Assembly (NCBI GenBank): GCA_964597925.1
Contig: CAZQZT010000002.1
Coordinates: 103,038 to 167,037, forward strand
DNA: 64,000 nt
Origin: an uncultured Candidatus Saccharibacteria bacterium
GTDB taxonomy: Bacteria > Patescibacteriota > Saccharimonadia > Saccharimonadales > JBBQAJ01
Direction of reading: 5' to 3'
In this document: piece by piece, positions 5,587 through 45,584 of the stretch
Layout of the letters: every line of letters starts with the position of its first letter
Position numbering within the stretch: position 1 is the first letter of the stretch
The notes under the pieces: generated by a model
The model's input: the letters and a program-made list of their open reading frames with translations, nothing else
Told to the model about the DNA's origin: nothing
Database searches by the model: none
Made by a program: the position numbers and the translations under genes

Positions 5587-6258
5587 GTGGTTGCAACAAT
5601 GCAACAGCCTTCCAGTATACCAGTTGCGCCGATGAGCGCAAGTGATGAAACAGCTCCTATTATAACTTCAAAACCGCCAAGCAAATGGGGAGGCGCTTTT
5701 TATACTATTGCTATTATAATTGCCGCTCCTTTGGTTGCTCTGACGCTGACGTCTTTTGTATTTCAGTCATACGAGGTAGATGGTCCGAGCATGGAAACTA
5801 CACTTCAAAATCAAGACAGATTGATAGTATGGAAGGCACCCCGCACGCTAGCGAAGATTACTAACCATACATATATACCTGAGCGAAGTGATGTGATTGT
5901 GTTTGTAAAACACGGACTATACGAAAGCCGAGGGTCACAAGAAAAACAACTAATAAAACGAGTGGTAGGACTGCCGGGAGACCGAGTAGTTGTGCAAGAT
6001 GGAAAGATTACTATATATAACACCGAAAATCCAGATGGCTACAATCCCGATTTGAATCAGGAGTTTTCTGAAAACATTGCTAGTGTCACAACCGGAAATG
6101 TAGATATAATTGTAGGCGAAGATGAAGTATTTGTATGCGGAGATAATCGTACTAATTCCCTAGATTCACGTGCTTTTGGCACGGTATCCGCAAACGATAT
6201 TATCGGGAAATTGACGATTAGGATATTCCCTATTAATAATTTCCAATCTTTTATCTAG
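5587..6258 (+). CDS. lepB: signal peptidase I
   Basis: TM anchor; catalytic Ser box (VDGPSMETTL); GDNRTNSLDSR box. The start may be the GTG at 5587 or the ATG at 5599. Confidence 0.9.
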   Translation: MVATMQQPSSIPVAPMSASDETAPIITSKPPSKWGGAFYTIAIIIAAPLVALTLTSFVFQSYEVDGPSMETTLQNQDRLIVWKAPRTLAKITNHTYIPERSDVIVFVKHGLYESRGSQEKQLIKRVVGLPGDRVVVQDGKITIYNTENPDGYNPDLNQEFSENIASVTTGNVDIIVGEDEVFVCGDNRTNSLDSRAFGTVSANDIIGKLTIRIFPINNFQSFI

Positions 6259-7109
6259 GAAAGTTTTTTATAGAGGCTTTTCAGGTCTTCGTCGTTTTTG
6301 AAGTGGATTTCTAATTTGCCACCTTTTGCGGTGTGATGAATAGTGACTTTTTTGTTGAGTTTGGTTGAGAGTTTTTTGGTTTCGGCCGTTTCCTTTACAG
6401 CTCGTTGCTTGACTGCATTTGAAGGTTTTATACCTTCTTTGTGCGCTGTTACGAACTGCTCGGCCTGCCTTACTGACCAAGCTTGTCCCTGTATGAGTTC
6501 AAGTAAACGATTTTGAAGTTCCGGCTGATGCTTTAATGCCAAAATGGCTCGTGCATGTCCTTCGGTAATATGCCCCGTCTGCAACGCTTTACGTGCATTG
6601 TCTGGCAATTGCAGCAAACGCACTATATTGTTTACTGTAGGAGCTGCTTTGCCTAGTTTTTTTGCAATCTGCTGGTAGCTTAGGTTGAACTGCTCATGCA
6701 AATGATGAATTGAAACGGCTTGCTCGAGGGGTGATAAATCGACACGCTGAACGTTTTCTATAAGTGCAATTTCTAGCCTTTGTAGCTCAGCTTTCTCACG
6801 TACAACGGCAGGTATGGTTTTAAGGCCGGCAATTTGTGATGCACGCCATCTGCGTTCACCTGCAATAATTTCAAATCCTTTGCCGTGAGGAGAAACAATG
6901 ATTGGTTGCAAGACACCATGTTCACGAATTGAGTCTGCCAATTCATTCAACGCCGATTGGTCGAACTGCTTTCGCGGTTGGTTTGGATTTGCTGAAATAT
7001 CAGCAATTAATAATTTTTGGATTCGTTCATCATTGCTTAAAATACTTTTGTCGAAATCTGTTGGAAGTAAACTCTCCAAGCCTCTACCCAATCTGTTTGT
7101 GTCAATCAT
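6255..7109 (-). CDS. parB: chromosome partitioning protein ParB/Spo0J
   Basis: ParB box (GERRWRA), HTH region and LIENVQRVDLSPLEQA. I place the start at the ATG at 7109 (MIDTNRLGRGLESLLP, a typical ParB N-terminus), overlapping the parA stop by 8 nt. The 72-aa upstream extension in the track lies inside parA. Confidence 0.9.
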   Translation of the reverse strand: MIDTNRLGRGLESLLPTDFDKSILSNDERIQKLLIADISANPNQPRKQFDQSALNELADSIREHGVLQPIIVSPHGKGFEIIAGERRWRASQIAGLKTIPAVVREKAELQRLEIALIENVQRVDLSPLEQAVSIHHLHEQFNLSYQQIAKKLGKAAPTVNNIVRLLQLPDNARKALQTGHITEGHARAILALKHQPELQNRLLELIQGQAWSVRQAEQFVTAHKEGIKPSNAVKQRAVKETAETKKLSTKLNKKVTIHHTAKGGKLEIHFKNDEDLKSLYKKLS

Positions 7110-7872
7110 TTTGCGCTCCACTGGTTCGCTTAATAACCTCTTTTGTAAATTGTTTGTACGCCCTGGCGCCCTTAGACCATTTGTCGTGTTCAGAAATAGG
7201 TTTGCCATGACTAGGGGCTTCTGCCAGGCGAACATTGCGTGGAATTTGTGTTTTGAAAACGGCCTCATCGAAATATTTTTGCAGCTCACCAACCACTTGT
7301 TCTGCCAGAGACGTGCGACTATCATACATTGTCACTAGAACACCCAGTAAGTTTAGGTTTGGGTTAGTTGATTGTTTAATACGCTGGAACACATCCATTA
7401 GTTGACCAAGTCCTTCCATAGCATAGAATTCTGCCTGAACTGGCACTAACAGCCAATTTGCGGCTGTCAAAGCATTTATAGTTAGTAAACTAAGCGCTGG
7501 GGGGCAGTCTATTAGTATGTAGTCATACTCTAGCCCCTCTAGCCTCGTTTTAAGCAAACTTTCTCTGTTCTCTTGATCTTTAAGTTCGAGTTCAGCCGCA
7601 GCTAGATTGTTGTTTGCAGGCAATAAAGAAATACCAGTCTCTGGAGATACCAGAATGGCGCTATTTGCTTTTGTCAGCCCAAGCATAACCTGATAACTTG
7701 TGTTGTCAAGATTGTCGTCTAATCCCAGTCCACTAGTGGCATTACCTTGAGGATCAAAATCTACAATCAATACTGATTTATCCATTTTTGCCAAATATGC
7801 GGCGAGGTTAATCGTGGTCGTGGTTTTACCTACACCACCCTTCTGATTTAAAATCGCAATGATATGCATCAT
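7102..7872 (-). CDS. parA: chromosome partitioning ATPase ParA/Soj
   Basis: Deviant Walker A (NQKGGVGKTTTTINLA); ParA-type length and order, upstream of parB. Confidence 0.93.
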   Translation of the reverse strand: MMHIIAILNQKGGVGKTTTTINLAAYLAKMDKSVLIVDFDPQGNATSGLGLDDNLDNTSYQVMLGLTKANSAILVSPETGISLLPANNNLAAAELELKDQENRESLLKTRLEGLEYDYILIDCPPALSLLTINALTAANWLLVPVQAEFYAMEGLGQLMDVFQRIKQSTNPNLNLLGVLVTMYDSRTSLAEQVVGELQKYFDEAVFKTQIPRNVRLAEAPSHGKPISEHDKWSKGARAYKQFTKEVIKRTSGAQND

Positions 7873-8068
7873 ATCTGTTTTTTACCCCTACTTGCTAGTA
7901 ACAGCCTATCACGAAACAAGGCTGTCCAGAAGACGTAAATCAAGTTATTTTTATCTGTATGCCTTTAGTCTTAGGTATATAAGCCCAATAGAATGCTCAA
8001 CGTCTACCCTTTTTGGAATATAAACATCCTTGGCAGCCCATTTTTTGTGTCGCTACCTGTAGTTGAGA

Positions 8069-8103
8069 ACGGTGGCGGTGCTATCGCAGTGACGGTGGCG
8101 GTG
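8069..8103. repeat. perfect 12-nt direct repeat ACGGTGGCGGTG x2, period 23 nt, in the parA-distal intergenic region
   Basis: Read directly: 8069-8080 and 8092-8103. A GC-rich island inside an AT-rich 590-bp spacer. Confidence 0.8.
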
Positions 8104-8462
8104 TTAGATGGCTGGCTGCTATTACCGGCAGTATCTCTAGTTATGATGGATCAAACCCCGAATCATACCTAGGCACTAACGAAAAACTCCCACAGACAGT
8201 AATATTTCATAAAAACTGCTTACTAGTATTTGTACAGTCCACTTCCACCCTCAACAAATAACAATGACCCAAATACATTACCAAACTTTCATAGTACACA
8301 TATACTAGTACTAAATGGCTAGTATATAATTGCTAGATAATAATCGTCCAACAATTATCCAAGCAATACAAAATTTGGATGTTATTTACCGCCTTTTGCC
8401 TTAAAAAGTTAACCACAGAGTATTTTGGATGTTTTGTTTTTTGTATTCAAGAAGTCCTCACT

Positions 8463-9050
8463 TTATATAGAAAGGCTGTTTGCCGTCAATTTGAACCGTG
8501 CCTCTAGGGCTTCAAAATCTTCTATCTTTGCCTGCATAGACAGATAGAAGGCTTGGTTTTCATCCTTTAAAACAATGTATAGATCTTGGTGTGCTACCTT
8601 GCCGTCTGTACGAATATAAGTAAAAGATACACGTGCCGCCTGCTTGCCTGACTGGTTAAATTTTTCTTCTGACAGTTTTTTATAGTCCGGATAGCGGTCT
8701 GGTAATACCTTGTCGGTATTGGCCAGTAAAAGATCCATGGTACTGGTTTTTGCCAGCTGAGAAGGCAGTCGAAGTCCTTCTTCGTAACGAAGAGTTATGA
8801 GGTAGGGTGTTTGACCTTCACTGTTGGCTCTAAAGAGAAATTTATCTTCGCTGTCTTGCGTGGTAAGGGTTAGTTGCTTTGCTTCGGCTGGATAGGAAAG
8901 CTTGACTCCCTGCTTGTTGTCTTGGAATTGCTGTAGTGTAGCTGAGCCGTTTGAAGGCGTTTCAGGCGCCTTGGCTAATCTAACCAAGACTAACCAAAGA
9001 ACTAATGCTAAAACCAGTAAAAAAGCTCCTACGATTCCCACACGACGCAT
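8463..9050 (-). CDS. membrane-anchored extracytoplasmic protein, unknown function
   Basis: N-terminal anchor MRRVGIVGAFLLVLALVLWLVLV, then a ~160-aa alpha/beta-looking domain. Lies directly downstream of the giant ORF on the same strand. Confidence 0.6.
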   Translation of the reverse strand: MRRVGIVGAFLLVLALVLWLVLVRLAKAPETPSNGSATLQQFQDNKQGVKLSYPAEAKQLTLTTQDSEDKFLFRANSEGQTPYLITLRYEEGLRLPSQLAKTSTMDLLLANTDKVLPDRYPDYKKLSEEKFNQSGKQAARVSFTYIRTDGKVAHQDLYIVLKDENQAFYLSMQAKIEDFEALEARFKLTANSLSI

Positions 9051-9054
9051 GGAT

Positions 9055-9102
9055 AGTAGTCTAACAGTCCAGTAGTCTAACAGTCCAGTAGTATAGGCTA
9101 GA
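9055..9102. repeat. 16-nt tandem repeat (AGTAGTCTAACAGTCC x2 plus a degenerate third copy) between the giant ORF and the downstream gene
   Basis: Read directly at 9055-9070 and 9071-9086; partial copy at 9087-9102. TAGTATAGG recurs at 9089 and 9111. Confidence 0.8.
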
Positions 9103-9126
9103 CATAGTTCTAGTATAGGTGTTGGT

Positions 9127-12100
9127 TTAGTTGTTTGAGCTGGAGAGGGTTATCCAGCGATCGGACATGTAGATTAGGGTTATTGAATCGTTTGGACCTA
9201 GGGTAATGTTTGCACCACCAGGTAACTGAACCACCCCTGCTGAGTTGGTTATGGTAAAGGTATCATTTGTAGCATCTTGTTCGTTGTTTACTATGATAAG
9301 CATGTCACCATCTTTGGCGCTGGCTTCAGATATTGAAAGGTCTGGCACACCGCCGTTGCCAGTTTCGTCTGCATCCACGCGTACATAGCTGGCAGTTGGT
9401 GCCAGCGTATCGTTAGCTGTGCCGTCGTCTGTTAGATTAAGCGCTTGAACGCCTAGGCCGAGGCGATCTTCGATGAACAGGCTCGCCCCAGTACCAGTCA
9501 GCTCTACGCGGTCATCTGTTAATTCGTCATAGCCAAGGTATGCATCTTGATCTATTCCAAGCACCAAGCCAAGGCCATCGCCTAGATATATTGCATCTAG
9601 TTCGTATGCTGCTGAACCAAGAGTTATGCCTTCGGCTGTGCTTGGCAAAATATCTCCACTACTGGTAATACCGACTACTGCAACTATCTTTCCGGAGGCA
9701 TTTACTTGGAAAGCGTCCGCCGTACCTGCGAATAAGGTTCCAGATACATCTAGGTTGCCGGCTATGTTGGTGTTGTCCTGCAGGTTTATGGTGGTGCTGG
9801 CGTTGATGTTTAGCGTGGTTGTACTGGTTATATTTCCGCCATTGACGGCCAAATCGCCCGATAGCGTCGCAATAGCACCGGTGAAATTGTCACTCCCAAT
9901 ATCTATTGCGCCAAAACCATTACTGATTGAGCCGGCATTCAGAACGCCCGTACCAGTGATGGCTGTCGCTACCCCGTCATTGGTGTCGACCAGTGCAACA
10001 TCATGATTGTTCAGCAGACCTAGTTCAGTTGCATTGAGTGTCATACCCATGATGTCAAAGATATTTGTGTAACCCCCTGTTATACCGCTATTCGTAACAG
10101 TTAGAACACTTGAAATTGCCGTGCCAGTTTCTGCGTTATCAACCTCAATTACGTTATCTAGGCCTTGGTTGTGAGCGGAACTATTAATCTGTCTGATATA
10201 GATACCTCGAGTATTAGCATTGTTAGCAGTTGGTGTGGTATCTATGGCAATAATACCCAACGCGCTCGTACCAGTTGTTGTGTCGATATCGATGTTTTCG
10301 GTTGCGGCAAAGACATAATTCACCGTTGTACCAAAATTGATGGCAGTCGCGTTAGTTGCGCCGATATTTATGCTACCCACGGTACCACTAGCAGTCCCAA
10401 CATCTATGTTTATGTTACCCGAGTTACCGGATCCTCCGCCACTGGCGTTGCCACTCTTCAGTGTTAGATTAGCTGAGCTGATATTGGTCGTTTGGTTAAG
10501 GGTCTGTATGGTTTTGGTGCCGTCACTGAAACCAGCGGTACTGCCGAGGTTGATCGTAGACGTAGCATTGGCCCCAAGGTTGATTGTGGTGGCTGCGCCA
10601 AAGGCGTTTATAGTCGTAGAAGTAGTGTTGAACAGAACACCCATAATTTGATTGGTAGCAATAGTGCCGGAGTTAGCGTTGATTTGTCCAGACGTGGTGA
10701 TGACACCCGCGCCGGTAATACTCCACTCTGCGTCATTGAGTATGAGGTTTGAGCCCGAACTTGCCCCAATATTGATACCTAACGGACTATTGATGGTTCC
10801 GATGTTAATAGAACCTGAACTATCAAAGGTATTATCTCCAACATTTATATTTATATCTCCACTGGTCCCACCGGTGCTACCATCACCTGAAAGGAGCGAT
10901 ACGCTACCACCGACACCGCAACCGAAAAAACATGGTGCAATATCACCTTGAATTATGATGCTTTTGCCAGCACCACCGCCACCCTTTATGGTTGCAGTAC
11001 CGCTGCCATAAAAAGTTAGCCCACTGCCATCTAGGGTCGAATTTCCAGCCGTTATTGTAGGTGCATATATTGTCCCAATAGAGTTTATAGAAGTTAGGAC
11101 AGTACCATTTGCGTCCACAACCTCTAGAGCAAAACCAGAAAGTTTTTGTATTGTTAGAGACGCATAACCTACGTCGTCTCCTGTTAAGTATAGGTTTCCG
11201 TTTGATACTGCACCGTATCTCGGTGAAATTGCAACAAGGCCGTTATTTTGCACATAAACTTGTGGGACAGTATCTTTGACCAATTGCGCTCCCCACGCCG
11301 CAACGGTAGTACTACTGTTTGGTAGGATAATTTTTGGTGTGACGGCTGAAACACCCCCAGAGGTATTTTGGGTTACATAAAATCTCTGCCAGGTAGTGGT
11401 AGCAGTAAACGAACTAGCAGTACCTGTTACTGGTGAACCACCCGTGGTGTCGATACGTAAGTTTACGGTTGCTGTGCCACTGTTGGTCTTTACCCAAACA
11501 CTAAAAGTGTAGTTACCAGTTATGGAAGTTGCGTAGGTCTGTGCAAGCGTGCCGTTTATAGAAGTCGAGACCAACTTTTCGGCTGAAGTTTGACCATTTG
11601 GTGCAGGGTTGGAGCCACTATCATCCCCCGTGACAGTTAAGTTTGTAGTTGACCAGAGGGGCGAATCGTCTAGAGACTCACTTTGAGATATGAGGTTACT
11701 ATAAGAACCAAATCCACCGTTCGGCGTGCTTAATGAACCTATCGATTCTTGGTTACCTGCCGCATCAACACCTAATAGTTTTGAACCAAGAGAATTTGTT
11801 AGCTGGAAAAGGTCAGCAGTCTGTGAAGTAGCGCCCTGGATAACACCACCCACACTGCTTGCACTGGCGCTCTGGATTTTGAAGTTAGCGCTACTCTGGG
11901 TACTTGTACCGTTTTGGATATAGCCCGCAGCACCGGTAGATGCGGCGTAGCCACTACAGACGCTACCAGTGCTACATAGTGTGCCTGTTTCATTTGGCAG
12001 TGTCAGCGTGAGGCCTGCGCCAGGAGTAGTTGGTCCCCGTAGTGTAATACCATTTGCGCTACCGCTAGCGTAGAACAGTATTGAGCCAATATTCCCATTG

Positions 12101-15100
12101 GCTGTACCAAGACTGAGGGAATTTGAACCCTGTATAGAAGCTGTTCCTGCGATAGCCAAGCCAGCAAAACTAGGGCTCGCAACAGTATTGATATTTTGTA
12201 TGGTATTGACACTGTAAGCTCCGTTGGGGCCACCATCAGACACATTGAAGTTAGTACCATTAAAGCTCAGTGTACGCTCTGCGCTCAAGCCTGCTTCTGG
12301 CGCAAAAGTGAAATACTCTGCATTCGTCGGTGCATTGCCTCCACCAGAACCAGAACAGTTTTGCAGGGCAAACAGACAAAAATCGTCGGAGGCGCCCGCA
12401 TCAGGGATGGTATAGGTGTAATCGCCTGTTGTAGGAGCTACAACTATCGTAGCCGTATTACTGCTTCCGTCGCTAATTATGAGAGAACCGGCTTGCAGGG
12501 CTGCGCCCAAAGTAGCCGAACCGCCTTGAACAATCAGGCCTACACTAGTGGTTACGTTGACACCGTCATCAGTTAGGGTTGAATCCCCTACAGTTGAACC
12601 AGTAGAGGTGAATTTGGCTATTTGGTTATTGGTGCCAGCGCCAGTTACGCCACCGCCAGAGCCTGCACAGTTACCTAGATTCTCTAGACACAAAGTGTCA
12701 TTACCGCCAGCATCGGGTAATAAAACCGCATAGTTACTTGTTGGTGCTGCAAAATTAAGCGTTGCCGTAAACCCAGCATCTGTAACAGAAAGGCTGCTAG
12801 ACGCATTGCCTTGAATTGTGATGACTTGGCCGGTAGCACCTATAGTAAGAGCACCACTCGGCGTAATGGCCGTAAGAGCAGTCAGAGATGTAATGTCACT
12901 GTTGGCTCCACTTGCGGCAGCAGACAGGTTACTCCTAGCACTCGTAGCGTCAAGTGCACCAGTACCACCGTTCAGCACTGGCAATATACCGGTTACTTCT
13001 GTTGTGAGGTTAATGTCTGTTCCTAGTGTCGTCTGTAGAGCGCCACCAGATATTTGCAGGCCAGTCCCCGTAAGGTCGGTGAAAGCATCACTGTTAAAGG
13101 TAAACGCATCACCTGCTTGGACAGTTAGTCCACCATTGAGACTGGTAAGCCCCGTTACGCTAAATGTACTAGCAGCAGTAGTTGGGCCATTCAGACTAAC
13201 TGCACCCGCACCTGTTCCAAAGGTGCCCGCACCTGTTTGAATGAAGCTGCTGGTTACGGTGGTTGCGCCATCCAAACTGACTGCACCCGTACCTGTGCTA
13301 AACGTGTTTGTACCTGTCTGATTGAAATCAGCGTTCAAAGTCACATCGCCGTTTAGTGTCGTGTTCCCCGTGCCGGTAGTGAAAGTGCCTGAACCCGTTT
13401 GAATGAAGTCCGTGTTATTTAGTAGATTTAAGATACGGCTTGTGCTGTCAACTGCTACTAAGCTCGTTCCGGCTGCGTTGGTAACGTTGAGCGCCTGCGT
13501 ATTATCTGTCCAAGTGCGAATGACAACATTGTCGCTACGAATATTAATATCTCCATCTGTTCCAGTGCCGTCTCGTCGGCCAGTTTCTATATTTAGAGTG
13601 CCCCCATTTCCGTTACCACCGGCTCCTGCGGCACCGCTGAGAAGCGTTAAAGTACCACCCGTACCAGTGCCATTTCCTTCGGCACCCTTAACCCTAAGAA
13701 TCCCCCCGTTGGCGTTCAGGGTAGTTGGCTTCAGCTGGTTTATGGTTCTAGTAATTCCTGAGTTACCACCAAATGATAAATCACCAAACGTCGCGTCACT
13801 AGCGGGCGTGCTGCTGCCTGAGGATACACCTATTTTGCCAGTTACCTGTAGTGCTAAACCGGTATTGGTGCCGTTGTTTATATCTAGCACACCCCCAGTA
13901 AGGGCTGAACTCGAGTTTCTAAAAGTGTAAAGATATTCGCTGTTAGGCACCGCAACAGTAGCCGTGTCTTGAATGATTTTGGATAAATATCTACCGTCGT
14001 TCCCGGTGGAACAAGGCGATGAGTTTGAAGTTGTGCATATGACACCGCTTTCTGTGGGCAGAGTTAGTATATAATTGCCCGTCACACCTGAGCCTATAAG
14101 AGACTGTAGAGTAATACTCCCTCCGCCATCGTACGCGAATTGCAGCTGTCCTAAGTTATCTGTTCCAGAAGTCCCAATGCTACCAATTTGCACTTTATTG
14201 CCTACTGTCTGATGAAGTCGCACATCGTCTACGTAGAAATTCACGCCGCTTGCTTCTGCCGAATTCGTTCTTCGAACGTGAATATTGTGTGAAGGATGGG
14301 TAATATTTGTAGTAAAGCTACAGACAAATTGACTCCATCTTGGCGCCGCGGTGCTACCTTGGGTGGCTTTACTGATCGTACAATCAAGGGCGAACTGTCC
14401 ACCACCCAGTAATTGGTGCCCTATAACTATATCGTTTATGCTTGGAGTACCTACCTCGGCCATAATCCACATCGATAGCACATACGACGAATTTACTTGT
14501 GTGATGACTGGTATGGTTGCGCCATCTCCTGTGTTATTTGTAGTGGTAACTCTCATGGAACGCGAACCAGTGTGTACGTATTGAACATCTGAATTTGTAT
14601 TAATATCTGGCGTACCTGCTTGTGCTGGGTACTCTTGGGTCACCCAGCTAACTGGATCTACCCCCGGTGTGTCGGACTCAAATGTTCCATTGTTTATTAG
14701 GTTTGTGTACGTGTCGTATACGGTACTGACATTGAGTACCGAATTGCTGGCGGAATTTTGCACTTGGAAGACATTGGTTGAGTCTACTGTGCTTCTGAAC
14801 AATCCGTTACCAAAAGCTGAGAGGTTGCCTGCAACTGAAATAGTATTGCCCGACTGCGTAAGCAGAGAATCCCCTATCACGTCTGCGCTCGTGAACATTG
14901 GAATGGTTCCTGGTGTACCACCAGCTGTGGTTACACTAGAACCAGCACCTGATGACTCATCATTGGTACACAAAACCTGACCGAGGTTGTTGGTAGTCAG
15001 CGAGCCGCCATTTAGGAAAACCGTACAGTTGATGGGCAGCGTAAGCGTGCCGCCGATGTTAAGGTTGCCGCTCAAAGTGGCGCTGGCAAACGTTGGCGAG

Positions 15101-15852
15101 CTGGTTATGCCAATGTCTTGTGGAGTAGAAAGTGTGATAACTCCGTTACTATTGGTAACGATTATTTGATTCCCTGTACCTTGTAGGGTAATTCCGCCAA
15201 TCATGCCGTTGAGTAAGCTTGAGGCCGGTACATCATCTGGCTGGTTGATGAGACCAACGACCGCAGCAAGATCTTCGTTGGTCACGAGGTCACAGTTGTT
15301 GGTGCTCAAACAAAAAGTGCCCGAAGCATTCGGAAGTGTGTAGGTTTGGTTAGCCGTTAGAGTTTCTGTACTTAGGGTTCCTGCGAAACCGCTGTTTACA
15401 ACCTTCAGGCTACCGCTTGTAATAATGTCTCCATTTACAAAAAGTGAGCTTTTTGCACCCTTTATCTCCGCCGGTAAATCTGCAATCTCTGCATCTTTTA
15501 GAGATAGGTCTTGAGTTTGAATAACTGATTGACCATTTTGCTGGGCTTTGGGTGCTTTGCGAGCCAAAATAAGTATACTTGCCCCTGTAAATAGTGTCAC
15601 TACGAGCGCTATGGCTATAGAAACTATCACAGCTTTACGGTGAGAAAATGGCAGGAGTTTAGCGTGAGGAGTGTATTGGCTTGCCTGTGCTGCAGTACCT
15701 TGCTCATGAACTTCGAGATCTTCAATGGGATAGTTCTTTTGCGGCAAACCGTACTGGGCTACGAACGGCTGAGTCGTAGTTGACGCGGCCTTAACCGAAG
15801 TTACAGTATCGGGATTATTAGAATTATCAGCTTTGAGCTGAGAGTTATCCAT
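9127..15852 (-). CDS. giant (2,241 aa) single-pass membrane-anchored fibrous surface protein; putative adhesin / host-recognition fibre
   Basis: Uninterrupted 6.7-kb ORF. About 73 aa of N-terminus, then one TM (AVIVSIAIALVVTLFTGASILILA), then a T/S/G/N/A-rich ectodomain with internal repeats, two jelly-roll/CBM-like modules and tail-fibre-like motifs. All antisense ORFs in the track are short composition artefacts. Confidence 0.85.
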   Translation of the reverse strand: MDNSQLKADNSNNPDTVTSVKAASTTTQPFVAQYGLPQKNYPIEDLEVHEQGTAAQASQYTPHAKLLPFSHRKAVIVSIAIALVVTLFTGASILILARKAPKAQQNGQSVIQTQDLSLKDAEIADLPAEIKGAKSSLFVNGDIITSGSLKVVNSGFAGTLSTETLTANQTYTLPNASGTFCLSTNNCDLVTNEDLAAVVGLINQPDDVPASSLLNGMIGGITLQGTGNQIIVTNSNGVITLSTPQDIGITSSPTFASATLSGNLNIGGTLTLPINCTVFLNGGSLTTNNLGQVLCTNDESSGAGSSVTTAGGTPGTIPMFTSADVIGDSLLTQSGNTISVAGNLSAFGNGLFRSTVDSTNVFQVQNSASNSVLNVSTVYDTYTNLINNGTFESDTPGVDPVSWVTQEYPAQAGTPDINTNSDVQYVHTGSRSMRVTTTNNTGDGATIPVITQVNSSYVLSMWIMAEVGTPSINDIVIGHQLLGGGQFALDCTISKATQGSTAAPRWSQFVCSFTTNITHPSHNIHVRRTNSAEASGVNFYVDDVRLHQTVGNKVQIGSIGTSGTDNLGQLQFAYDGGGSITLQSLIGSGVTGNYILTLPTESGVICTTSNSSPCSTGNDGRYLSKIIQDTATVAVPNSEYLYTFRNSSSALTGGVLDINNGTNTGLALQVTGKIGVSSGSSTPASDATFGDLSFGGNSGITRTINQLKPTTLNANGGILRVKGAEGNGTGTGGTLTLLSGAAGAGGNGNGGTLNIETGRRDGTGTDGDINIRSDNVVIRTWTDNTQALNVTNAAGTSLVAVDSTSRILNLLNNTDFIQTGSGTFTTGTGNTTLNGDVTLNADFNQTGTNTFSTGTGAVSLDGATTVTSSFIQTGAGTFGTGAGAVSLNGPTTAASTFSVTGLTSLNGGLTVQAGDAFTFNSDAFTDLTGTGLQISGGALQTTLGTDINLTTEVTGILPVLNGGTGALDATSARSNLSAAASGANSDITSLTALTAITPSGALTIGATGQVITIQGNASSSLSVTDAGFTATLNFAAPTSNYAVLLPDAGGNDTLCLENLGNCAGSGGGVTGAGTNNQIAKFTSTGSTVGDSTLTDDGVNVTTSVGLIVQGGSATLGAALQAGSLIISDGSSNTATIVVAPTTGDYTYTIPDAGASDDFCLFALQNCSGSGGGNAPTNAEYFTFAPEAGLSAERTLSFNGTNFNVSDGGPNGAYSVNTIQNINTVASPSFAGLAIAGTASIQGSNSLSLGTANGNIGSILFYASGSANGITLRGPTTPGAGLTLTLPNETGTLCSTGSVCSGYAASTGAAGYIQNGTSTQSSANFKIQSASASSVGGVIQGATSQTADLFQLTNSLGSKLLGVDAAGNQESIGSLSTPNGGFGSYSNLISQSESLDDSPLWSTTNLTVTGDDSGSNPAPNGQTSAEKLVSTSINGTLAQTYATSITGNYTFSVWVKTNSGTATVNLRIDTTGGSPVTGTASSFTATTTWQRFYVTQNTSGGVSAVTPKIILPNSSTTVAAWGAQLVKDTVPQVYVQNNGLVAISPRYGAVSNGNLYLTGDDVGYASLTIQKLSGFALEVVDANGTVLTSINSIGTIYAPTITAGNSTLDGSGLTFYGSGTATIKGGGGAGKSIIIQGDIAPCFFGCGVGGSVSLLSGDGSTGGTSGDININVGDNTFDSSGSINIGTINSPLGINIGASSGSNLILNDAEWSITGAGVITTSGQINANSGTIATNQIMGVLFNTTSTTINAFGAATTINLGANATSTINLGSTAGFSDGTKTIQTLNQTTNISSANLTLKSGNASGGGSGNSGNINIDVGTASGTVGSINIGATNATAINFGTTVNYVFAATENIDIDTTTGTSALGIIAIDTTPTANNANTRGIYIRQINSSAHNQGLDNVIEVDNAETGTAISSVLTVTNSGITGGYTNIFDIMGMTLNATELGLLNNHDVALVDTNDGVATAITGTGVLNAGSISNGFGAIDIGSDNFTGAIATLSGDLAVNGGNITSTTTLNINASTTINLQDNTNIAGNLDVSGTLFAGTADAFQVNASGKIVAVVGITSSGDILPSTAEGITLGSAAYELDAIYLGDGLGLVLGIDQDAYLGYDELTDDRVELTGTGASLFIEDRLGLGVQALNLTDDGTANDTLAPTASYVRVDADETGNGGVPDLSISEASAKDGDMLIIVNNEQDATNDTFTITNSAGVVQLPGGANITLGPNDSITLIYMSDRWITLSSSNN

Positions 15853-16043
15853 AGTTGTGTTTTTGATTGTTTTTATTTGAGTTCGCCTCTGTTAGAAGCA
15901 AGATTGTAGCTTGTTGTGGCTACACTTTCCCATCACTATAGTACAAGAGGTCAAGGAGTTGCGCAAGCAATTTTGAACACATAATTTATAGATACGTACT
16001 TACTTATCCCCAGGTCTAGCTTTTTAGACAATTATTTTATTCC

Positions 16044-16865
16044 TTAGACCCATAGAATCGCATAGACGGCAGCCAAGCCAACCAACATAACAGCCAGAGC
16101 AATGAAGACAACTCTGATCATTTCAGCCCTTATAATTTTGCGCGCTAGCGGGTTGCGCCCTAGCGCAGTCATGGCACTAGATATGGCGCCGTAAATAATT
16201 GCACCTTCAGCAATTAGTACTATTACAAAAATAATCAGTGCAATCAGTACGCGTGCTTCGCCCACGTCTTTGCCAACTATGGTGCGTCCTAGACGTGCTA
16301 GCGCTGAATCACTTTCTGTGCCGGCATTTGCGCTTCCCTGTTGATTGAGATTTAGGGTGACTTTAGCGATTTGAGTTTGTTTGGTTTGACCTGCGTCTGT
16401 GTAGTTATACGGTGACGGATTTGACGGAGCATCCCCAGCAACACCAATAACCGTAGCCGCAAGCTCACTTGATTTCATGAGTATTCCTTTGAGCGGAGAA
16501 AGTACCAGCAAGTCCCCCCTTGCAACACCTCCGTTTATGTCGCTCACATAAGCTTGAACCTGACCCTCGCTTTCTACTAACACATTCGATGATTCGGATC
16601 CAACAGTAACAAAACTATTTTCTACAGTTGTAACAACTCCAACCACTCTGGTGCTGGAATCTTGAGTAGCACGCTCTACCCCTGAATCAGTTGAACCGTC
16701 AGCACTAAGCGCAACTACCATCCCCGTCTGAAGACCGCTGTCGATGGTAGTGTAGCCGCGAGCAATTGCCAAGACAGAAGCCTGAAATAATAAAAGTGCC
16801 ATCAGTGACAAGCCAGCAATTAGGCCCCCGAACAGTTTGATATTTCGTACTTCTCTTCGTCTCAT
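16044..16865 (-). CDS. secreted/membrane protein with a C-terminal two-helix membrane hairpin, unknown function
   Basis: I place the start at the ATG at 16865 (MRRREVRNIKLFGGLIAGLSLMALLLFQASVLA, a signal-like sequence). Central ~170-aa soluble domain. C-terminal hairpin ...LIAEGAIIYGAISSAMTALGRNPLARKIIRAEMIRVVFIALAVMLVGLAAVYAILWV. Confidence 0.6.
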   Translation of the reverse strand: MRRREVRNIKLFGGLIAGLSLMALLLFQASVLAIARGYTTIDSGLQTGMVVALSADGSTDSGVERATQDSSTRVVGVVTTVENSFVTVGSESSNVLVESEGQVQAYVSDINGGVARGDLLVLSPLKGILMKSSELAATVIGVAGDAPSNPSPYNYTDAGQTKQTQIAKVTLNLNQQGSANAGTESDSALARLGRTIVGKDVGEARVLIALIIFVIVLIAEGAIIYGAISSAMTALGRNPLARKIIRAEMIRVVFIALAVMLVGLAAVYAILWV

Positions 16866-16989
16866 GCCAGCCATTATCGTTATGTTTGTTGCTAGTATGA
16901 CGGCATTTACTCCGTAAAACAAGCGTTTAGCATTTAAAAACACCTTAGCGCAAATCAACCATACAATAGTGCTTAAGGTGAACTAGATT

Positions 16990-17298
16990 TTACGCTATTT
17001 TGGTGATTTTGAGATGCGTGTGGCGCTGACGATGCCCGCGGACTGTGTGAACGCGTTTTTTGGCTTTGTAGCGAATTGACATAACTTTGTCCGCCTGCAC
17101 ATCTGGAGTAACAACTTCTGCGGTAACTTTGGCACCCGTAACTTCGGGAGTGCCAACGGTGGTTTTCTCTCCGTCAATAACAAGTAATGGCACAAAACTT
17201 ACTGTTTTGCCCAAGTCTTTCAAAAGTTCGACTTCAACAGTTTCGCCTTCACTGACGATATACTGTTTACCACCGGTTGCAATAACTGCTTTTTTCAT
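16990..17298 (-). CDS. rplU: 50S ribosomal protein L21
   Basis: MKKAVIATGGKQYIVSEGETVEVE... and the C-terminal KKRVHTVRGHRQRHT are L21 hallmarks. Start taken at the ATG at 17298. Confidence 0.92.
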   Translation of the reverse strand: MKKAVIATGGKQYIVSEGETVEVELLKDLGKTVSFVPLLVIDGEKTTVGTPEVTGAKVTAEVVTPDVQADKVMSIRYKAKKRVHTVRGHRQRHTHLKITKIA

Positions 17299-17348
17299 AG
17301 ATACCAAGAGATTCTATCAGATACGAAGAGCCTTGTCAAAGGAGTAAA

Positions 17349-20210
17349 TTAGCTTTTGGTGAGCTTGACTTTGAGCTGAGCACCTTCGATAGCGACTTCC
17401 ACTTCATGCGTGCCGGCTCCACTTTTTGTCAGTTGAGTAGCAAGAGTTTCTTGCTTGAGCAGGTCAATGTGTTCGTGGATAGCTTTTTGCAACTCCGCGT
17501 AATCTGTGGTTAGTACTAGCGATATACGATCATCTACCCGTAAACCTGCTGTCTTGCGAGCGCTTTGGACATGACGAATTACTTCGCGAATCAAGCCTTC
17601 ACGTTTCAGTTTGGGTGTGAGTGTAGTATCGAGAGCAAGCTCTTTACCCCATTTAACTTCTTTGACATTAAGTTCTTCAGCTATGATTTCTTTGTACATA
17701 TCAGGTAGTTCAACGGTAGTAACACACGCCAATGGCTGGCGAACTTTTATGCCAGCCCGAGCACGCATGGCCAAGCCTTCTGTAATGGCTTGGCGGGTTT
17801 GCGCCATATGGTCCACGAGAAGTTCATTTACATGACCCACCTCTGGCCAGTCCTGTAGATGTACCGACTCGCCACCGGTCAATTTCTGATACAATTCTTC
17901 GCTCAAGAATGGCGTAAATGGCGCCATGACATAGGCTAGCTGAACCAAGATATAGTGCAGAGTACGGTAGGCGTCGTTTTTGTCGCTGTCATCTTGACTC
18001 TTCCAGAAACGCTTTCTACTACGACGCACATACCAGTTACTAGCATCGTCTATAAACGGCAGGATTGGTTTTACGGCGCTTGTTATATCGTATCGGCTCA
18101 TGTGCATATCAACTTCTTGTATAACTTGATGCATGCGAGAGATAATCCATTGATCTAAAGTATTTGTGCAATTCAAAAAAGGATCTTGTATTTCACCATC
18201 CCACTCCCAGCCATCAACATCGGCATAAAGGGTGAAGAAGTCGTACATATTCCAAACCATCGCTAGTTTGCGAAAAATATCTGCCACATCTTTGTCTAAC
18301 ATAGAGAAGTCTTCGCCGTTTAAAAGCGGGGACTGAAGAAACAGAAAACGAAGAGCATCGGCGCTGTAGGTATCCATGAGCTCGTTTGGATCTGTATAGT
18401 TGCCAAAGCTTTTACTCATTTTTCTACCGTCGTTACCAGCAATAGTGCCATGAACCAAAGCCGTTTTAAATGCCGATTTGCCAAACAATCCAACGCTTAC
18501 TGCATTCATGTAGTAAAACCATGCTCTAACCTGAGGTACGTATTCTACGATAAAATCACCGGGGAAATTTTGTTCAAATTTCTCAACATTTTCAAAAGGG
18601 TAGTGGAATTGAGCAAACGGCATACTGCCCGATTCAAACCAACAATCCAAAACCTTTTCTATTCTCTTGTATTTGACTTTATCTATTGTGAAAGTTACAG
18701 CATCAATCCAAGGACGATGATAATCATCTAACTCCACTCCGGAGAGCTCTTTCAGCTCGGCATAGCTGCCAATCACCTTGATGTGCTCTTTGCCTTGAGC
18801 ATCCGCACCTTTCCATATGGGCATGGCCGTTGCCCAAAACCTGTCACGGCTAAGATTCCAGTCCGGCGCTGTTTCTATAGTTTTTTCTGAACGGCCGTGT
18901 TTGATATGCTCTGGAAACCAATTTACTAGCCCATTTTGTTCTAGCATTTGGGTACGCTGGCCGTCTATATCCATAAACCAACTAGGATGAGCTCTGTACA
19001 TAAGCTTGGTGCCACAACGATGACAGTGGGGGTAACTATGCTGTATATAGTCTATCTTCCAAACACTGCCACGCTCTAGAAGGGTTTTGGCAATTTCTTT
19101 GTTAGCATCCCAGATGTTTTGGCCCTTCCATTCACCTACAGTATAAATACCGTTTTCATCAGTGTTCATAACCCACGGGAAATCCTGAGTCTTGCTAAGC
19201 GCATAATCTTCTTCACCATAGGCTGGTGATTCATGGGCTATACCAGTACCCTCTTCGTCATGCACAAAGTCTGCGTGCCAAACCCTAAAAGCACGATTGC
19301 CTAGATCTTTGTGGGTATCGACTATTGGTTCATAGATTTTTCCAACCAGCTCGCTACCCTTGAAAGTTCTTAGTAACTTATAGGGCAGAACTTGATGCTT
19401 TTCATCAGTTAGAGCTTTATCTAGTAGCGATTTTGCCAGAATTAATTTTTGCCCGTCTAATTGAACTTCGGCATATGTTAGACCTGCGTTAACTGCAATT
19501 GCCGAGTTTGATGGCAGAGTCCAAGGCGTTGTAGTCCAAGCCAGCAGATGAGTGTTTTCGCCAACAATTTTAAATTTAGCATACACCGAGGGGTCGGTTA
19601 CGTCTTGATAGCTATTGTCCATGGCTACTTCTGATTTACTAATGGGAGTGGCATCTCTCGTGCAATAGAGCAGAACCTTTTCACCTTCGTAGATTTTGCC
19701 TTTGTCGTACAACTGTTTGAAAGCCCACCAAATAGACTCCATGTAATTTTTGTCCATAGTTTTGTACGCACCCCTAAAATCTACCCAACGACCTATGCGA
19801 TCAATAGTATCTTCCCAGAGTGAGCCAGTTTGAGTCATATTATCACTACAGGTAAGTATGTATTCTTCTAGGCTGACTTTTGTACCGATATCTCTCTTGT
19901 CTTTGATACCAAGCTTTTTTTCTGTAAACACTTCTGCGGGCAAGCCATGACAGTCCCAGCCCCAAACTCGCTGTACGTGCTTGCCTTTCATGGTTTGATA
20001 GCGAGGTACAGCATCTTTGACTATAGAAGTAAGTAGGGTGCCGTGGTGAGGTACGCCAGTGATAAACGGTGGACCATCGTAAAAAACAAAGGCATTGTCT
20101 TTGGACCGCATTGAAACAGACTTTTCAAAAGTTTTATGTTGCTTCCAATACTGTACGAGATCTTTCTCGTACTCTATGGCTTTTCTGCGTGTTCCTTGCT
20201 TAAATTTCAT
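17349..20210 (-). CDS. ileS: isoleucyl-tRNA synthetase (type 2, eukaryote-like)
   Basis: Class I HIGH region in a type-2 context (FYDGPPFITGVPHHGTLL); KMSKS (GRKMSKSFGN); 953 aa; preceded by an Ile-specific T-box. Confidence 0.93.
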   Translation of the reverse strand: MKFKQGTRRKAIEYEKDLVQYWKQHKTFEKSVSMRSKDNAFVFYDGPPFITGVPHHGTLLTSIVKDAVPRYQTMKGKHVQRVWGWDCHGLPAEVFTEKKLGIKDKRDIGTKVSLEEYILTCSDNMTQTGSLWEDTIDRIGRWVDFRGAYKTMDKNYMESIWWAFKQLYDKGKIYEGEKVLLYCTRDATPISKSEVAMDNSYQDVTDPSVYAKFKIVGENTHLLAWTTTPWTLPSNSAIAVNAGLTYAEVQLDGQKLILAKSLLDKALTDEKHQVLPYKLLRTFKGSELVGKIYEPIVDTHKDLGNRAFRVWHADFVHDEEGTGIAHESPAYGEEDYALSKTQDFPWVMNTDENGIYTVGEWKGQNIWDANKEIAKTLLERGSVWKIDYIQHSYPHCHRCGTKLMYRAHPSWFMDIDGQRTQMLEQNGLVNWFPEHIKHGRSEKTIETAPDWNLSRDRFWATAMPIWKGADAQGKEHIKVIGSYAELKELSGVELDDYHRPWIDAVTFTIDKVKYKRIEKVLDCWFESGSMPFAQFHYPFENVEKFEQNFPGDFIVEYVPQVRAWFYYMNAVSVGLFGKSAFKTALVHGTIAGNDGRKMSKSFGNYTDPNELMDTYSADALRFLFLQSPLLNGEDFSMLDKDVADIFRKLAMVWNMYDFFTLYADVDGWEWDGEIQDPFLNCTNTLDQWIISRMHQVIQEVDMHMSRYDITSAVKPILPFIDDASNWYVRRSRKRFWKSQDDSDKNDAYRTLHYILVQLAYVMAPFTPFLSEELYQKLTGGESVHLQDWPEVGHVNELLVDHMAQTRQAITEGLAMRARAGIKVRQPLACVTTVELPDMYKEIIAEELNVKEVKWGKELALDTTLTPKLKREGLIREVIRHVQSARKTAGLRVDDRISLVLTTDYAELQKAIHEHIDLLKQETLATQLTKSGAGTHEVEVAIEGAQLKVKLTKS

Positions 20211-39850: not shown

Positions 39851-40070
39851 TTCTGCGTCTCGATGGCGCAGAATTTGGTATTCTACACCTTAGGCGCTCG
39901 TTTGATGCTCAGGCTTATACCATATGTGATATAGAGCTAAATTAGCTTAATACCATCTATGATATATTGCACGTGATTTTGAGATTTTAAGGTAAACGGG
40001 TGGTGATTTAGAACCACCAATAACTAGTCAATGCACTTACTCAGAGAAGGCTCGCGCCTTGTCTGAGTTC

Positions 40071-43295
<3,225 letters not shown>

Positions 43296-43658: not shown

Positions 43659-45401
43659 TTATTTTGTAGTTAGAACGACTAAATTTGAAGCAACTGACTT
43701 GTTGTTGCTTGTATCGACAGCCTGGATGTAATAGGTGTATTTAGTCTTGCGGGCAACGTTTGTATCTGTATATGTCAGACTCGTAGTCTTGGCATAGAGG
43801 ATGCCGTTTCGATATACCCAGTATTCTTTTACGGCTACGTTATCTTTGCTAGCGGTCCAGGTAAGCTTTGGCTTACCGTTCTGTAATCCTCCAGATAGTA
43901 CTGATGCTGTTGGAGCAGTAGTGTCAGTCGGAGACGTAAGTGTACCTAGCGCACGATTCAAGTTTGGCAGAGGACCAATGTTGCCACTCAACGTACCAGC
44001 GCTGGTGTTTTGCAAAGTTCCGGTTTGAATCAAAGTGCTGCGTATTTGTGCAGGAGTCAGTAGTTTACCTGGGTTGAGCGTTTTATATGCAGAGCTTAGC
44101 GATGCTATCGCTGAAGCTACAATTGGAGCAGCCGAACTTGTGCCATTGAAGTTTGATGTATATGCACCATTTGGTGTGGTACCTGCTTCTAATGCACCAT
44201 AACCAGCCGTTGTTACACATTCTCCATGACCTTGTAGTTCAACACGTGATCCATAATTGCTAAAGTACAATCGAGCATTTAGCGGTGCGGCACAAGCAGA
44301 ACCCGCGCCAGCAATCACTGAACCAGAGCTAACTTTGCCCATAGGAAACGTTGTGCCCCATACAGCAGTATCGTCTAGGTTATGACCGCTGTTAGCTGCT
44401 GCCTGTACAACGTTTATGCCGCTATCTGTCAGTGCTTTTATGGCGTCATATATAGCTGGCTCCCATTCAACCGGTGCATAGCCGCCTACGCTTGATGGAG
44501 CCCATGTTTGCTGTTCAATAAGCACTACGTCGCCAGGTACAGCTCGAGTAGCAGCAGTCTGCAGTGCACCCACTATATCCCAGCCACGTTCTTGATTGTA
44601 GGTATTAACTCGTGACAATGCCGCCCCACTAACTGCGCCAGTTACGCCCGTGCTATTATCTGTAGCAACTATCTCGCCCAACACTGCCGTACCGTGGTTG
44701 GAGTCATTAAAAGGATCTGCCGGAGTTCCGTTATTTAGATTGCTACCGACGGCTTTTGCTAAATCTTCATGACTAGCGTTCCAGCTGTATTCTAGATCAA
44801 TTACACGAACCGCACTACCGTTTCCGCCAGGAATAGTTTTGGCATAGGCAGAGTCAATCCCATAGGGGCTGGCGTTTAGGTATTTCTGCAAACTAGTGTA
44901 GTTGTTTACAGTAGGAGCTGGAGCGGGCTTGGATTGTGGATATACAGTTTCCACGCTGTCCAATAATGCAATCTTACCGACAAGTGCTTGTATGTTGTCA
45001 CTTGGCTTAACTTTAACTACAAAATAGTCGTCAAGATTACTGGCTAGTTTCTTACTATAAGCAGTTTCTGGTTCGCTACTTTGACCCACTAGTTTTTCTA
45101 GCTTTTGCTTGCCGGCATCATTTAGAACCTTGTTTAGGTTGCTGGCTTTGGCTTGAGACTTGGTGGTTTTTGGTTTGAAGTTGCTGGACTGGTCTATTTC
45201 CAGCTGCGCGGTATCTTTTAGCTTAACTATCAGACTATCATTGCGATATTTCTGACTGTCAGAATAATCATTGTTTGGACTTGAACCAGCGCCAACAGCG
45301 CTACCGGAACCGAACAGATTAGTAGCGACCAATAGTGTTGCCAGAAACGTCGATAGAACAGATACCGGAACTTTACCAAAACGTGTATTTCGTAACTTCA
45401 A
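43659..45401 (-). CDS. secreted subtilisin-family (S8) serine protease with propeptide-like N-region and C-terminal FN3-like domain
   Basis: Signal peptide (MKLRNTRFGKVPVSVLSTFLATLLVATNLFG). Catalytic D (VRVIDLEYSW), H (SNHGTAVLGEIVA), N (AAANSGHN), S (NGTSSAAPIVAS). C-terminal beta-sandwich (KPKLTWTASKDNVAVKEYWVYRNG...YTYYIQAVDTSNN). TTG start with SD GGUGAGG. Confidence 0.9.
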   Translation of the reverse strand: MKLRNTRFGKVPVSVLSTFLATLLVATNLFGSGSAVGAGSSPNNDYSDSQKYRNDSLIVKLKDTAQLEIDQSSNFKPKTTKSQAKASNLNKVLNDAGKQKLEKLVGQSSEPETAYSKKLASNLDDYFVVKVKPSDNIQALVGKIALLDSVETVYPQSKPAPAPTVNNYTSLQKYLNASPYGIDSAYAKTIPGGNGSAVRVIDLEYSWNASHEDLAKAVGSNLNNGTPADPFNDSNHGTAVLGEIVATDNSTGVTGAVSGAALSRVNTYNQERGWDIVGALQTAATRAVPGDVVLIEQQTWAPSSVGGYAPVEWEPAIYDAIKALTDSGINVVQAAANSGHNLDDTAVWGTTFPMGKVSSGSVIAGAGSACAAPLNARLYFSNYGSRVELQGHGECVTTAGYGALEAGTTPNGAYTSNFNGTSSAAPIVASAIASLSSAYKTLNPGKLLTPAQIRSTLIQTGTLQNTSAGTLSGNIGPLPNLNRALGTLTSPTDTTAPTASVLSGGLQNGKPKLTWTASKDNVAVKEYWVYRNGILYAKTTSLTYTDTNVARKTKYTYYIQAVDTSNNKSVASNLVVLTTK

Positions 45402-45507: not shown

Positions 45508-45584
45508 TGGTGGAGCAACAGGGACTCGAACCCTGGACCCCCTACTTGCAAAGCAGGTGCTCTAGCCAACTGAGCTATTGCCCC
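45508..45584 (-). tRNA. tRNA-Ala (UGC), CCA encoded
   Basis: Reverse complement: GGGGCAATAGCTCAGTTGGCTAGAGCACCTGCTTTGCAAGTAGGGGGTCCAGGGTTCGAGTCCCTGTTGCTCCACCA. G3:U70 present. Confidence 0.95.

Follow-up and report, generated by a model that had tools for sequence, protein, structure and literature searches.

A divergent CBM_4_9-superfamily module in a giant, predicted membrane-anchored surface protein of a Saccharibacterium

In a 64,000-nucleotide (nt) stretch of an uncultured Candidatus Saccharibacteria genome (contig CAZQZT010000002.1 of assembly GCA_964597925.1; the full stretch is here referred to as “the window,” and all positions are given in its numbering), an open reading frame (ORF) for a giant protein of 2241 amino acids (aa) carries a domain, module 1, that belongs, as a true but divergent member, to the CBM_4_9 (CBM4/9/16/22) beta-jelly-roll superfamily of carbohydrate-binding modules (CBMs). 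We consider the assignment of fold and superfamily secure because three independent lines, namely Pfam, a profile of homologues, and a predicted structure, agree on it. The best explanation of module 1, and in our view a probable one, is a divergent CBM_4_9 lectin-type module on a surface protein, which would bind an envelope glycan, most probably that of the host.

Saccharibacteria, like other Patescibacteria, live on host bacteria to which they attach. Binding of the Saccharibacterium TM7x requires host cell-wall glycans, especially rhamnose, and the lectins for these glycans are still unidentified; additional close-proximity surface adhesins have been proposed, and the minor pilins PilX1 and PilX2 are lectin-like (PMC11623550). 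Essential envelope proteins of Southlakia epibionticum carry polysaccharide-binding domains (VCBS, dockerin, and FN3 proteins) (PMC10633639), and infected hosts remodel cell-wall polysaccharide synthesis (PMC13622651). The idea of glycan-binding surface proteins in Saccharibacteria is already published, and the domain type itself is well known, with relatives already annotated automatically as carbohydrate binding. New here are the presence of the module in a protein left blank by standard annotation, its Cys pair and lost ligand aromatics, and its conserved but mosaic locus. Module 1 provides an expressible candidate of about 170 residues for Saccharibacterial lectins, and the locus is where host-range determinants could be sought across the phylum.

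Family and fold of module 1

Scanned alone against Pfam, module 1 (aa 383 to 548) matches PF02018 (CBM_4_9, clan GBD) at 30.2 bits (E = 6.5e-7; gathering score, 25.9) over profile positions 2 to 119 of 136, and wider boundaries of the module give 30.0 and 29.4 bits. The initial annotation, made from the letters of the DNA, had proposed a CBM4_9-like jelly-roll in this region; the Pfam search that it suggested for about aa 383 to 548 thus returned PF02018 above the gathering score and not a blank for jelly-roll and lectin profiles, and the family profile and the structural model described below both match CBM22, CBM16, and CBM4. All of the peptide strings that it quoted are found in the giant ORF, on the minus strand and within aa 383 to 548, the in-frame interval of which translates to TNLINNGTFESDTPGVDPVSWVTQEY...HTGSRSMRVTT...SSYVLSMWIMAE...RWSQFVCSFTT...GVNFYVDDVRLHQ (full peptide, TNLINNGTFESDTPGVDPVSWVTQEYPAQAGTPDINTNSDVQYVHTGSRSMRVTTTNNTGDGATIPVITQVNSSYVLSMWIMAEVGTPSINDIVIGHQLLGGGQFALDCTISKATQGSTAAPRWSQFVCSFTTNITHPSHNIHVRRTNSAEASGVNFYVDDVRLHQ). 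Its coordinates, 14210 to 14705, lie in the right region and are one base short at each end, hence out of frame if taken literally; translated as given, they run into stop codons on either strand (Table 1).

In the Pfam scan, PF02018 was not reported for the full 2241-aa protein or for 300-aa pieces that cut module 1, and the precomputed public Pfam field of the identical protein, which is present on public contigs of up to 184 kb, is empty. We attribute the loss of the match in the whole-protein scan to HMMER filters acting on a protein in which T, G, S, and N make up 46% of residues. Because full-length hmmscan and the precomputed field are both empty, routine annotation misses the domain, and low-complexity giant proteins of this kind need domain-wise scanning.

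Profile searches and structure prediction were based on a 22-sequence alignment of the module 1 family (A1), with the signature NLITNxSFE...GW...G..SL.V.T...DGA.Y...L...T.Y.LSFYAK...GYS.DGST.T.C...QTV.T..W.R..CTFTT...SG..Y.Y..QT.ATA.TF.ID.VQLE. In module 1 itself, the corresponding motifs are NNGTFE (F391, E392), W403, Y457, W462, W506, CSFTT, and FYVDDVRL (D542, D543). PF02018 is matched by 20 of the 22 sequences (best E, 1.6e-16), and one relative, P0054, is named “carbohydrate binding domain-containing protein” at NCBI. Searched against the PDB, the A1 profile retrieves CBM22-1/-2 (4XUP; E = 2.6e-16), CBM16-1 (2ZEW/2ZEX; E = 1.5e-14), CBM22-2 (1DYO; E = 1.4e-11), CBM4-2 (1K42; E = 5.6e-5), and CBM4 (1GUI; E = 0.012).

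The AlphaFold2 model built with A1 is all-beta with nine strands (mean predicted local distance difference test score [pLDDT], 80.4; predicted template modeling score, 0.80). Foldseek comparison of this model with the PDB gives CBM16 (2zex; E = 1.9e-7; template modeling [TM] score on the target, 0.73), CBM4-2 (2y64; E = 3.7e-7), and CBM22 (4xup; E = 5.6e-7), with TM scores on the target of up to 0.75 among the top matches. The same comparison also returns the arabinanase EndoMA1, through its CBM-like domain (8hhv), and modules that bind porphyran, alginate, and hyaluronan. Among viral models, the best matches are “Carbohydrate-binding, CenC-like” phage proteins (uncultured Caudovirales), followed in rank by minor tail proteins of Mycobacterium, Gordonia, Arthrobacter, Tsukamurella, and Rhodococcus phages; in addition, PHROG 1775 matches module 1 at E = 1e-5. 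The pattern quoted in the initial annotation is far beyond chance, as follows from the E values of Pfam (6.5e-7), of the family profile against CBM structures (2.6e-16), and of Foldseek (1.9e-7).

The Cys columns of A1 that correspond to C491 and C511 (C114 and C134) are each at least 90% conserved in the module 1 family. The two residues probably form a disulphide that would staple the loop before the strand W506 to T515. E392 (in NGTFE) and D542/D543 (in VDDV) are candidate residues of the structural Ca2+ site of this fold.

Architecture of the giant protein

The predicted transmembrane helix near the N terminus is the sole uncharged hydrophobic segment of at least 18 aa in the giant protein; it follows a tail of about 73 aa and has an equivalent at about aa 65 to 100 in most homologues. 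Neither an LPXTG motif nor a second transmembrane segment was found in the protein, which from its sequence reads as N-terminally membrane anchored, with about 2140 residues outside the cell. All of its 16 Cys lie in close pairs, as would suit a protein outside the cell. We assume that the organism that carries it is a Patescibacterium of monoderm type.

Table 1. Module 1, its carrier protein, and the adjacent genes in the window
Feature	Position	Strand	Basis
Upstream membrane protein, 304-aa ORF (276 aa in public data)	16044..16958	-	Syntenic homologues
Giant ORF, 2241 aa	9127..15852	-	ORF list, translation
Predicted transmembrane helix, aa 74-97 (AVIVSIAIALVVTLFTGASILILA)	15562..15633	-	Hydrophobicity
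“Stalk A,” membrane-proximal, conserved, aa 101-380	14713..15552	-	BLAST coverage, 50 homologues; tblastn to syntenic loci L008-L010
Module 1, CBM_4_9-superfamily beta-sandwich, aa 383-548	14209..14706	-	Pfam PF02018, alignment A1, PDB profile search, AlphaFold2, Foldseek
Cys pair C491...C511 within module 1	14320..14382	-	Nearly invariant A1 columns C114 and C134
Module 2, distant relative of module 1 fold, aa ~1384-1520	11293..11703	-	Iterated hidden Markov model, hhalign
C-terminal (distal) beta-sandwich, aa ~2130-2241	9130..9465	-	Alignment A3, AlphaFold2
Downstream 195-aa protein, N-terminal hydrophobic segment, between giant gene and parA	8463..9050	-	Translation

Stalk A and the N terminus are the portion common to positional orthologues (about 43% identity). 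Module 2, farther along the chain, is without NGxFE, the Cys pair, and DDV, and its C-terminal end is AWGAQLV. An iterated hidden Markov model (HMM) of the module 1 family nevertheless matches it at 3.4e-11 and, in a second scan, at 1.3e-10; hhalign pairs the two families with a probability of 94.8% (E = 5.5e-8), and Pfam CBM_4_9 reaches 20.4 bits (E = 7.2e-4), under the gathering score. The kinship of the two modules is one of profile-profile comparison only, because BLASTP between them was not significant; internal repeats at E < 1e-3 were likewise not detected in the protein. Within the window, the module 1 family is confined to the giant ORF.

At the distal end, the protein closes with the family-wide ...DRWI.LSSSNN-COOH, which is kept as ...DRWI..S.SNN to the very end in eight family members (alignment A3). 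AlphaFold2 assigns pLDDT values of 80 to 93 to the last ~110 residues only and models the remainder of this C-terminal part with low confidence.

Two further motifs were noticed along the chain. A connector, “Y.L.LP...G..C....C,” with a close Cys pair, recurs at segment ends of the conserved stalk regions (aa ~170 to 187, 594 to 614, 1041 to 1062, ~1145 to 1166, and ~1280 to 1299). The motif GILPVLNGGTGALDATSARSNLSAAASGANSDITSL (aa ~958 to 995; window ~12870 to 12980, minus strand) matched no Pfam or PHROG family; it appears to resemble a motif of phage tail-fibre proteins.

A conserved chromosomal locus with a mosaic gene

The window is a piece of a Saccharibacteria chromosome and not of a phage. 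It contains a 16S-tRNAIle-tRNAAla-...-23S-5S operon and the RNase P RNA, together with genes for IleRS, class II ribonucleotide reductase (RNR), NrdR, FtsZ, FtsA, ParB, LytR, an HtrA-like protein, GyrA, GyrB, IF-2, PriA, and S1. Its GyrB is 85 to 93% identical to more than 100 listed metagenomic proteins, and the named relatives (86 to 87%) come from metagenome-assembled genomes (MAGs) of Candidatus Saccharibacteria, Saccharimonadales, or Patescibacteria. The 16S rRNA gene contains an exact match to the TM7-specific primer 580F. The neighborhood of the giant gene itself consists of IleRS, L21, ParA, ParB, RNR, NrdR, FtsZ, and FtsA. A phage tail fibre or receptor-binding protein was considered as an identity for the giant protein and rejected in view of the housekeeping neighbors, the rRNA operon, and the lack of phage genes nearby; PHROG searches of pieces of the giant protein gave no structural match besides the CBM itself. 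The initial annotation had spoken of such a module in a fibre; the carrier is not a phage fibre but a chromosomally encoded, membrane-anchored giant surface protein of a Saccharibacterium.

The gene order at the locus is IleRS, L21, a membrane protein of ~275 aa, the giant gene, a protein of ~190 aa, ParA, and ParB (window 6255 to 20210, minus strand). This order recurs around four homologues (P0002, P0006, P0007, and P0003), and it is complete in the locus of P0002 only; the syntenic loci considered include L008, L009, L010, and L005. On the P0007 contig, a second, tandem giant paralogue directly follows the giant gene in place of the small downstream gene; on the P0003 contig, a 1405-aa Kelch-repeat protein takes that place. 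Identity to the window at syntenic loci is 71 to 81% for L21, 73 to 74% for ParA and ParB, 45 to 62% for the upstream membrane protein, and ~43% for the first ~345 residues of the giant protein, the remainder of which is unalignable or aligns as patches of 28 to 53% identity in other positions. Across these loci, the giant protein varies in length between 1795 and 3804 aa and differs in domain content, with CBM_4_9 in P0007, Beta_helix/NosD in P0003, and neither in P0002 or P0006. Because orthologues at the same locus differ in length and domain content, module 1 is one interchangeable cassette in a surface protein that evolves fast while its place on the chromosome stays fixed.

More widely, the search with the whole protein returned 50 further giant proteins of 1500 to 3900 aa, several with precomputed PF02018 and some with Beta_helix/NosD or Peptidase_S74 domains in the precomputed annotation. 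Within this set of 51 proteins, the module 1 family is represented in about 11 (1 to 7 copies each) and absent from the rest. The HMM iterated locally finds 89 module copies in 68 proteins, with a maximum of 10 in one protein. Searching the collection of genome contigs with the whole protein yielded no loci, and the genome of the window itself is absent from that collection; scans with the A2 profile yielded two loci in genome contigs and three in metagenome contigs.

Comparison with a near-identical strain variant (P0069; 2247 aa) reveals 106 differences, of which 38 fall within aa 1551 to 1650 (window 10903 to 11202, minus strand), 12 in module 2, and 6 in module 1. The distribution suggests a local diversification hot spot at aa 1551 to 1650, just after module 2. 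With 6 differences there, a strain-level hot spot at module 1 is not supported.

Proposed function, ligand-contact residues, and alternative readings

We propose that module 1, on the extracellular part of the giant protein, would act as a lectin-type module for a glycan of the cell envelope. The most probable target would be a cell-wall polysaccharide of the bacterial host, and binding would help the epibiont to adhere at close range and to discriminate between hosts. A lectin-type role is favored because the nearest relatives in sequence and structure are true CBMs and phage host-recognition proteins, because the module behaves as a cassette, and because binding of TM7x is known to need host glycans. 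That module 1 binds carbohydrate is, on balance, what we expect; that the carbohydrate belongs to the host is a more tentative step, to which we give somewhat less than even odds.

Several findings weigh against this proposal, and the first concern divergence. Single-sequence phmmer of module 1 against all PDB chains retrieved no CBM (best E, 0.22, to an unrelated protein), and an exhaustive phmmer search of 1.84 billion representatives retrieved only 17 other proteins at E < 1e-3, the nearest of them 40% identical. Since the PDB search was empty and relatives are so few, module 1 is very divergent; a word-indexed homologue search with module 1 alone likewise found no relatives.

The second concern is the known ligand contacts, which we mapped onto module 1 by joining the A1-profile-to-structure alignments with A1. 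At the equivalents of Trp 23 and 128 of the CBM16-1 chain (2zew), module 1 has Q (WVTQ) and R (HVRR). These chain residues we take to be the sugar-stacking Trp20 and Trp125 in the numbering of the original paper, an offset that agrees with the Q121E mutants 3OEA and 3OEB. The equivalent of Gln121 is N in module 1, and the A1 consensus at Trp20, Trp125, and Gln121 is K, K/T, and Y. In CBM22-1 (4XUP), the third strand is followed by the EAWNGP loop, the Trp of which aligns just before the conserved DGA of the family, and the equivalent of the CBM22 ligand Trp, presumably Trp53 in 1DYO, is G in module 1 (TGDGAT). Thus, the known CBM16 and CBM22 binding sites are not retained. Because their sugar-stacking Trp residues are not conserved, ligand specificity is not transferable, and on its sequence module 1 cannot be placed in any CAZy family; phmmer against the PDB gave no significant pairwise similarity to a characterized member of any CAZy CBM family, the resemblance being at the level of profiles.

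The loss of these aromatics is what would be expected if module 1 were a beta-sandwich of another kind, a structural spacer or a protein-binding domain on a CBM_4_9 scaffold that has lost sugar binding. The residues conserved in the family (F391, W403, Y457, G483, C491, W506, C511, F513, D542, and L546) can be read, from their positions in the motifs, as scaffold positions with no obvious binding site, and F391, W403, Y457, W506, C491/C511, F513, and D542 as core or structural. The fold also has other uses, in that the Foldseek matches of module 1 include Cry toxin domains, HpiC1-type cyclases, and gingipain adhesin domains, which counts against a lectin as well. However, true CBMs and phage receptor-binding and tail proteins make up the great majority of the nearest relatives, and ligand-face residues normally vary between CBM families, so we regard a non-lectin domain as unlikely.

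The third concern is placement, in that module 1 begins only ~285 residues past the single transmembrane helix and not at the distal end. Module 1 might instead bind the wall or S-layer glycopolymer of the Saccharibacterium itself and so fix the base of the fibre, leaving contact with the host to module 2 or the C-terminal beta-sandwich farther out. The closest architectural relatives, P0053, P0052, and P0071, have the same layout as the giant protein across module 1, the mid region, and the C terminus, with a similarly N-proximal counterpart of module 1 (aa 409 to 559, aa 523 to 683, and ~625 to 772, respectively); such a fixed position fits a basal role, and the distal C terminus is a separately conserved domain. 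In most other homologues, however, the cassette lies far from the anchor (aa 2000 to 3000) in tandem arrays, which better fits outward-facing binding, and no SLH, LysM, or GW family was found in the giant protein by Pfam, whole or in pieces. Self-envelope anchoring is, in our judgment, distinctly unlikely.

Finally, a CBM normally serves a catalytic domain, and the absence of one counts against the proposal: none was found in the giant protein, whole or in 300-aa pieces, with Pfam, NCBIfam, or PHROGs. A polysaccharide-degrading enzyme of tailspike type, in which module 1 would hold the substrate, is hinted at by the C-terminal domain, whose Pfam Phage_depo_C score (24.6 bits) stops just short of the gathering score of 25 and which Foldseek links weakly to phage tailspikes (Acinetobacter phage Solidus gp83 and CBA120 TSP4), and by the Beta_helix/NosD or Peptidase_S74 domains of some homologues. 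Yet the same searches that found no catalytic family found no beta-helix family, the beta-helix regions of the homologues fall where the giant protein does not align, and the C-terminal model is of low confidence beyond its last ~110 residues. We consider a depolymerase very improbable.

With the lectin-type module retained as the preferred reading, a broader proposal can be framed by analogy to phage receptor-binding proteins and the mosaic way in which they evolve. The IleRS-L21-(~275-aa membrane protein)-giant-ParAB locus could be the main close-range determinant of host range in Saccharibacteria, encoding a membrane-anchored, tailspike-like fibre whose CBM_4_9 cassettes, including module 1, would be swapped between lineages and would track variable cell-wall polysaccharides of hosts (e.g., those rich in rhamnose). 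We offer this as a speculative and rather unlikely extension.

Relation to known systems

The modules represented by PF02018 and by CBM22, CBM16, and CBM4 (4XUP, 1DYO, 2ZEW, and 1K42) are type B, glycan-chain-binding modules of xylanases, mannanases, and glucanases. Module 1 has the same beta-jelly-roll of ~150 residues and shares the N-terminal NGxFE, the central Y.ls.W/Y and W..f..fT, and the C-terminal (Y)vDDV.L. Unlike them, it is without an attached glycoside hydrolase and has a family-specific Cys pair and the loop insertions VDPVS, PAQAG, and SAE, and the ligand-stacking Trp residues of CBM16-1 and CBM22 are replaced in it.

The CBM modules of phage receptor-binding and tail proteins have the same fold, a long, fibrous, mosaic carrier, and similar cassette behavior. 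Unlike phage tail proteins, the giant gene is chromosomal, between L21 and parAB, and its product begins with a membrane anchor and not with a virion attachment domain. Closer in taxonomy are the envelope proteins of cultivated Saccharibacteria, which belong to the same phylum and for which glycan-binding surface folds have been proposed to serve attachment to Actinomycetota (PMC10633639, PMC11623550); in contrast to these, the domain type here is CBM_4_9, and the carrier is a membrane-anchored mosaic protein of 2241 aa, not a pilin. Giant fibrillar RTX adhesins such as MpIBP (PMC5550230) are likewise very long, modular surface proteins with sugar-binding-type modules among extender regions. 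Unlike them, the giant protein is anchored by its N-terminal transmembrane helix, and RTX repeats, a type I secretion signal, and Ig-like extender repeats were not detected in it by Pfam, whole or in pieces.

Neighboring genes and other features of the window

The upstream membrane protein directly precedes the giant gene in L008, L009, L010, and L005/L002 (32 to 62% identity), and even in a Patescibacteria MAG of greater distance a giant homologue is preceded by a membrane protein of this kind, ~275 aa long (32% identity). The Pfam scan assigned the upstream membrane protein to no family; it may assist in export, assembly, or anchoring of the giant protein. The downstream 195-aa protein has syntenic counterparts of 181 to 201 aa, with 27.5% identity in L008, and gave sub-threshold Pfam matches only.

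Within the rRNA operon, on the same strand and between tRNA-Ala (45508 to 45584) and the 23S rRNA gene, lies a 580-aa ORF (43659 to 45401, minus strand) with a Peptidase_S8 (subtilase) domain (E = 2.1e-17). The 23S rRNA gene (40070 to 43295, minus strand) is 3226 nt long, compared with 2904 nt in E. coli. Alignment with MAFFT places expansion-type insertions of 133 nt after E. coli position ~278, of 65, 21, and 57 nt around positions 1709 to 1769, and of 63 nt after position ~2207. For this gene, Rfam gave no match to an intron family at the gathering score. Elsewhere in the window, a 937-aa ORF (55234 to 58047, minus strand) has weak matches to AAA_22, HerA, and TraG-D_C, all under the Pfam cut-offs, and may encode a type IV secretion coupling protein. 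Near it, on the plus strand (53040 to 54635), is a gene for a 531-aa DUF11 repeat protein that is probably located at the cell surface.

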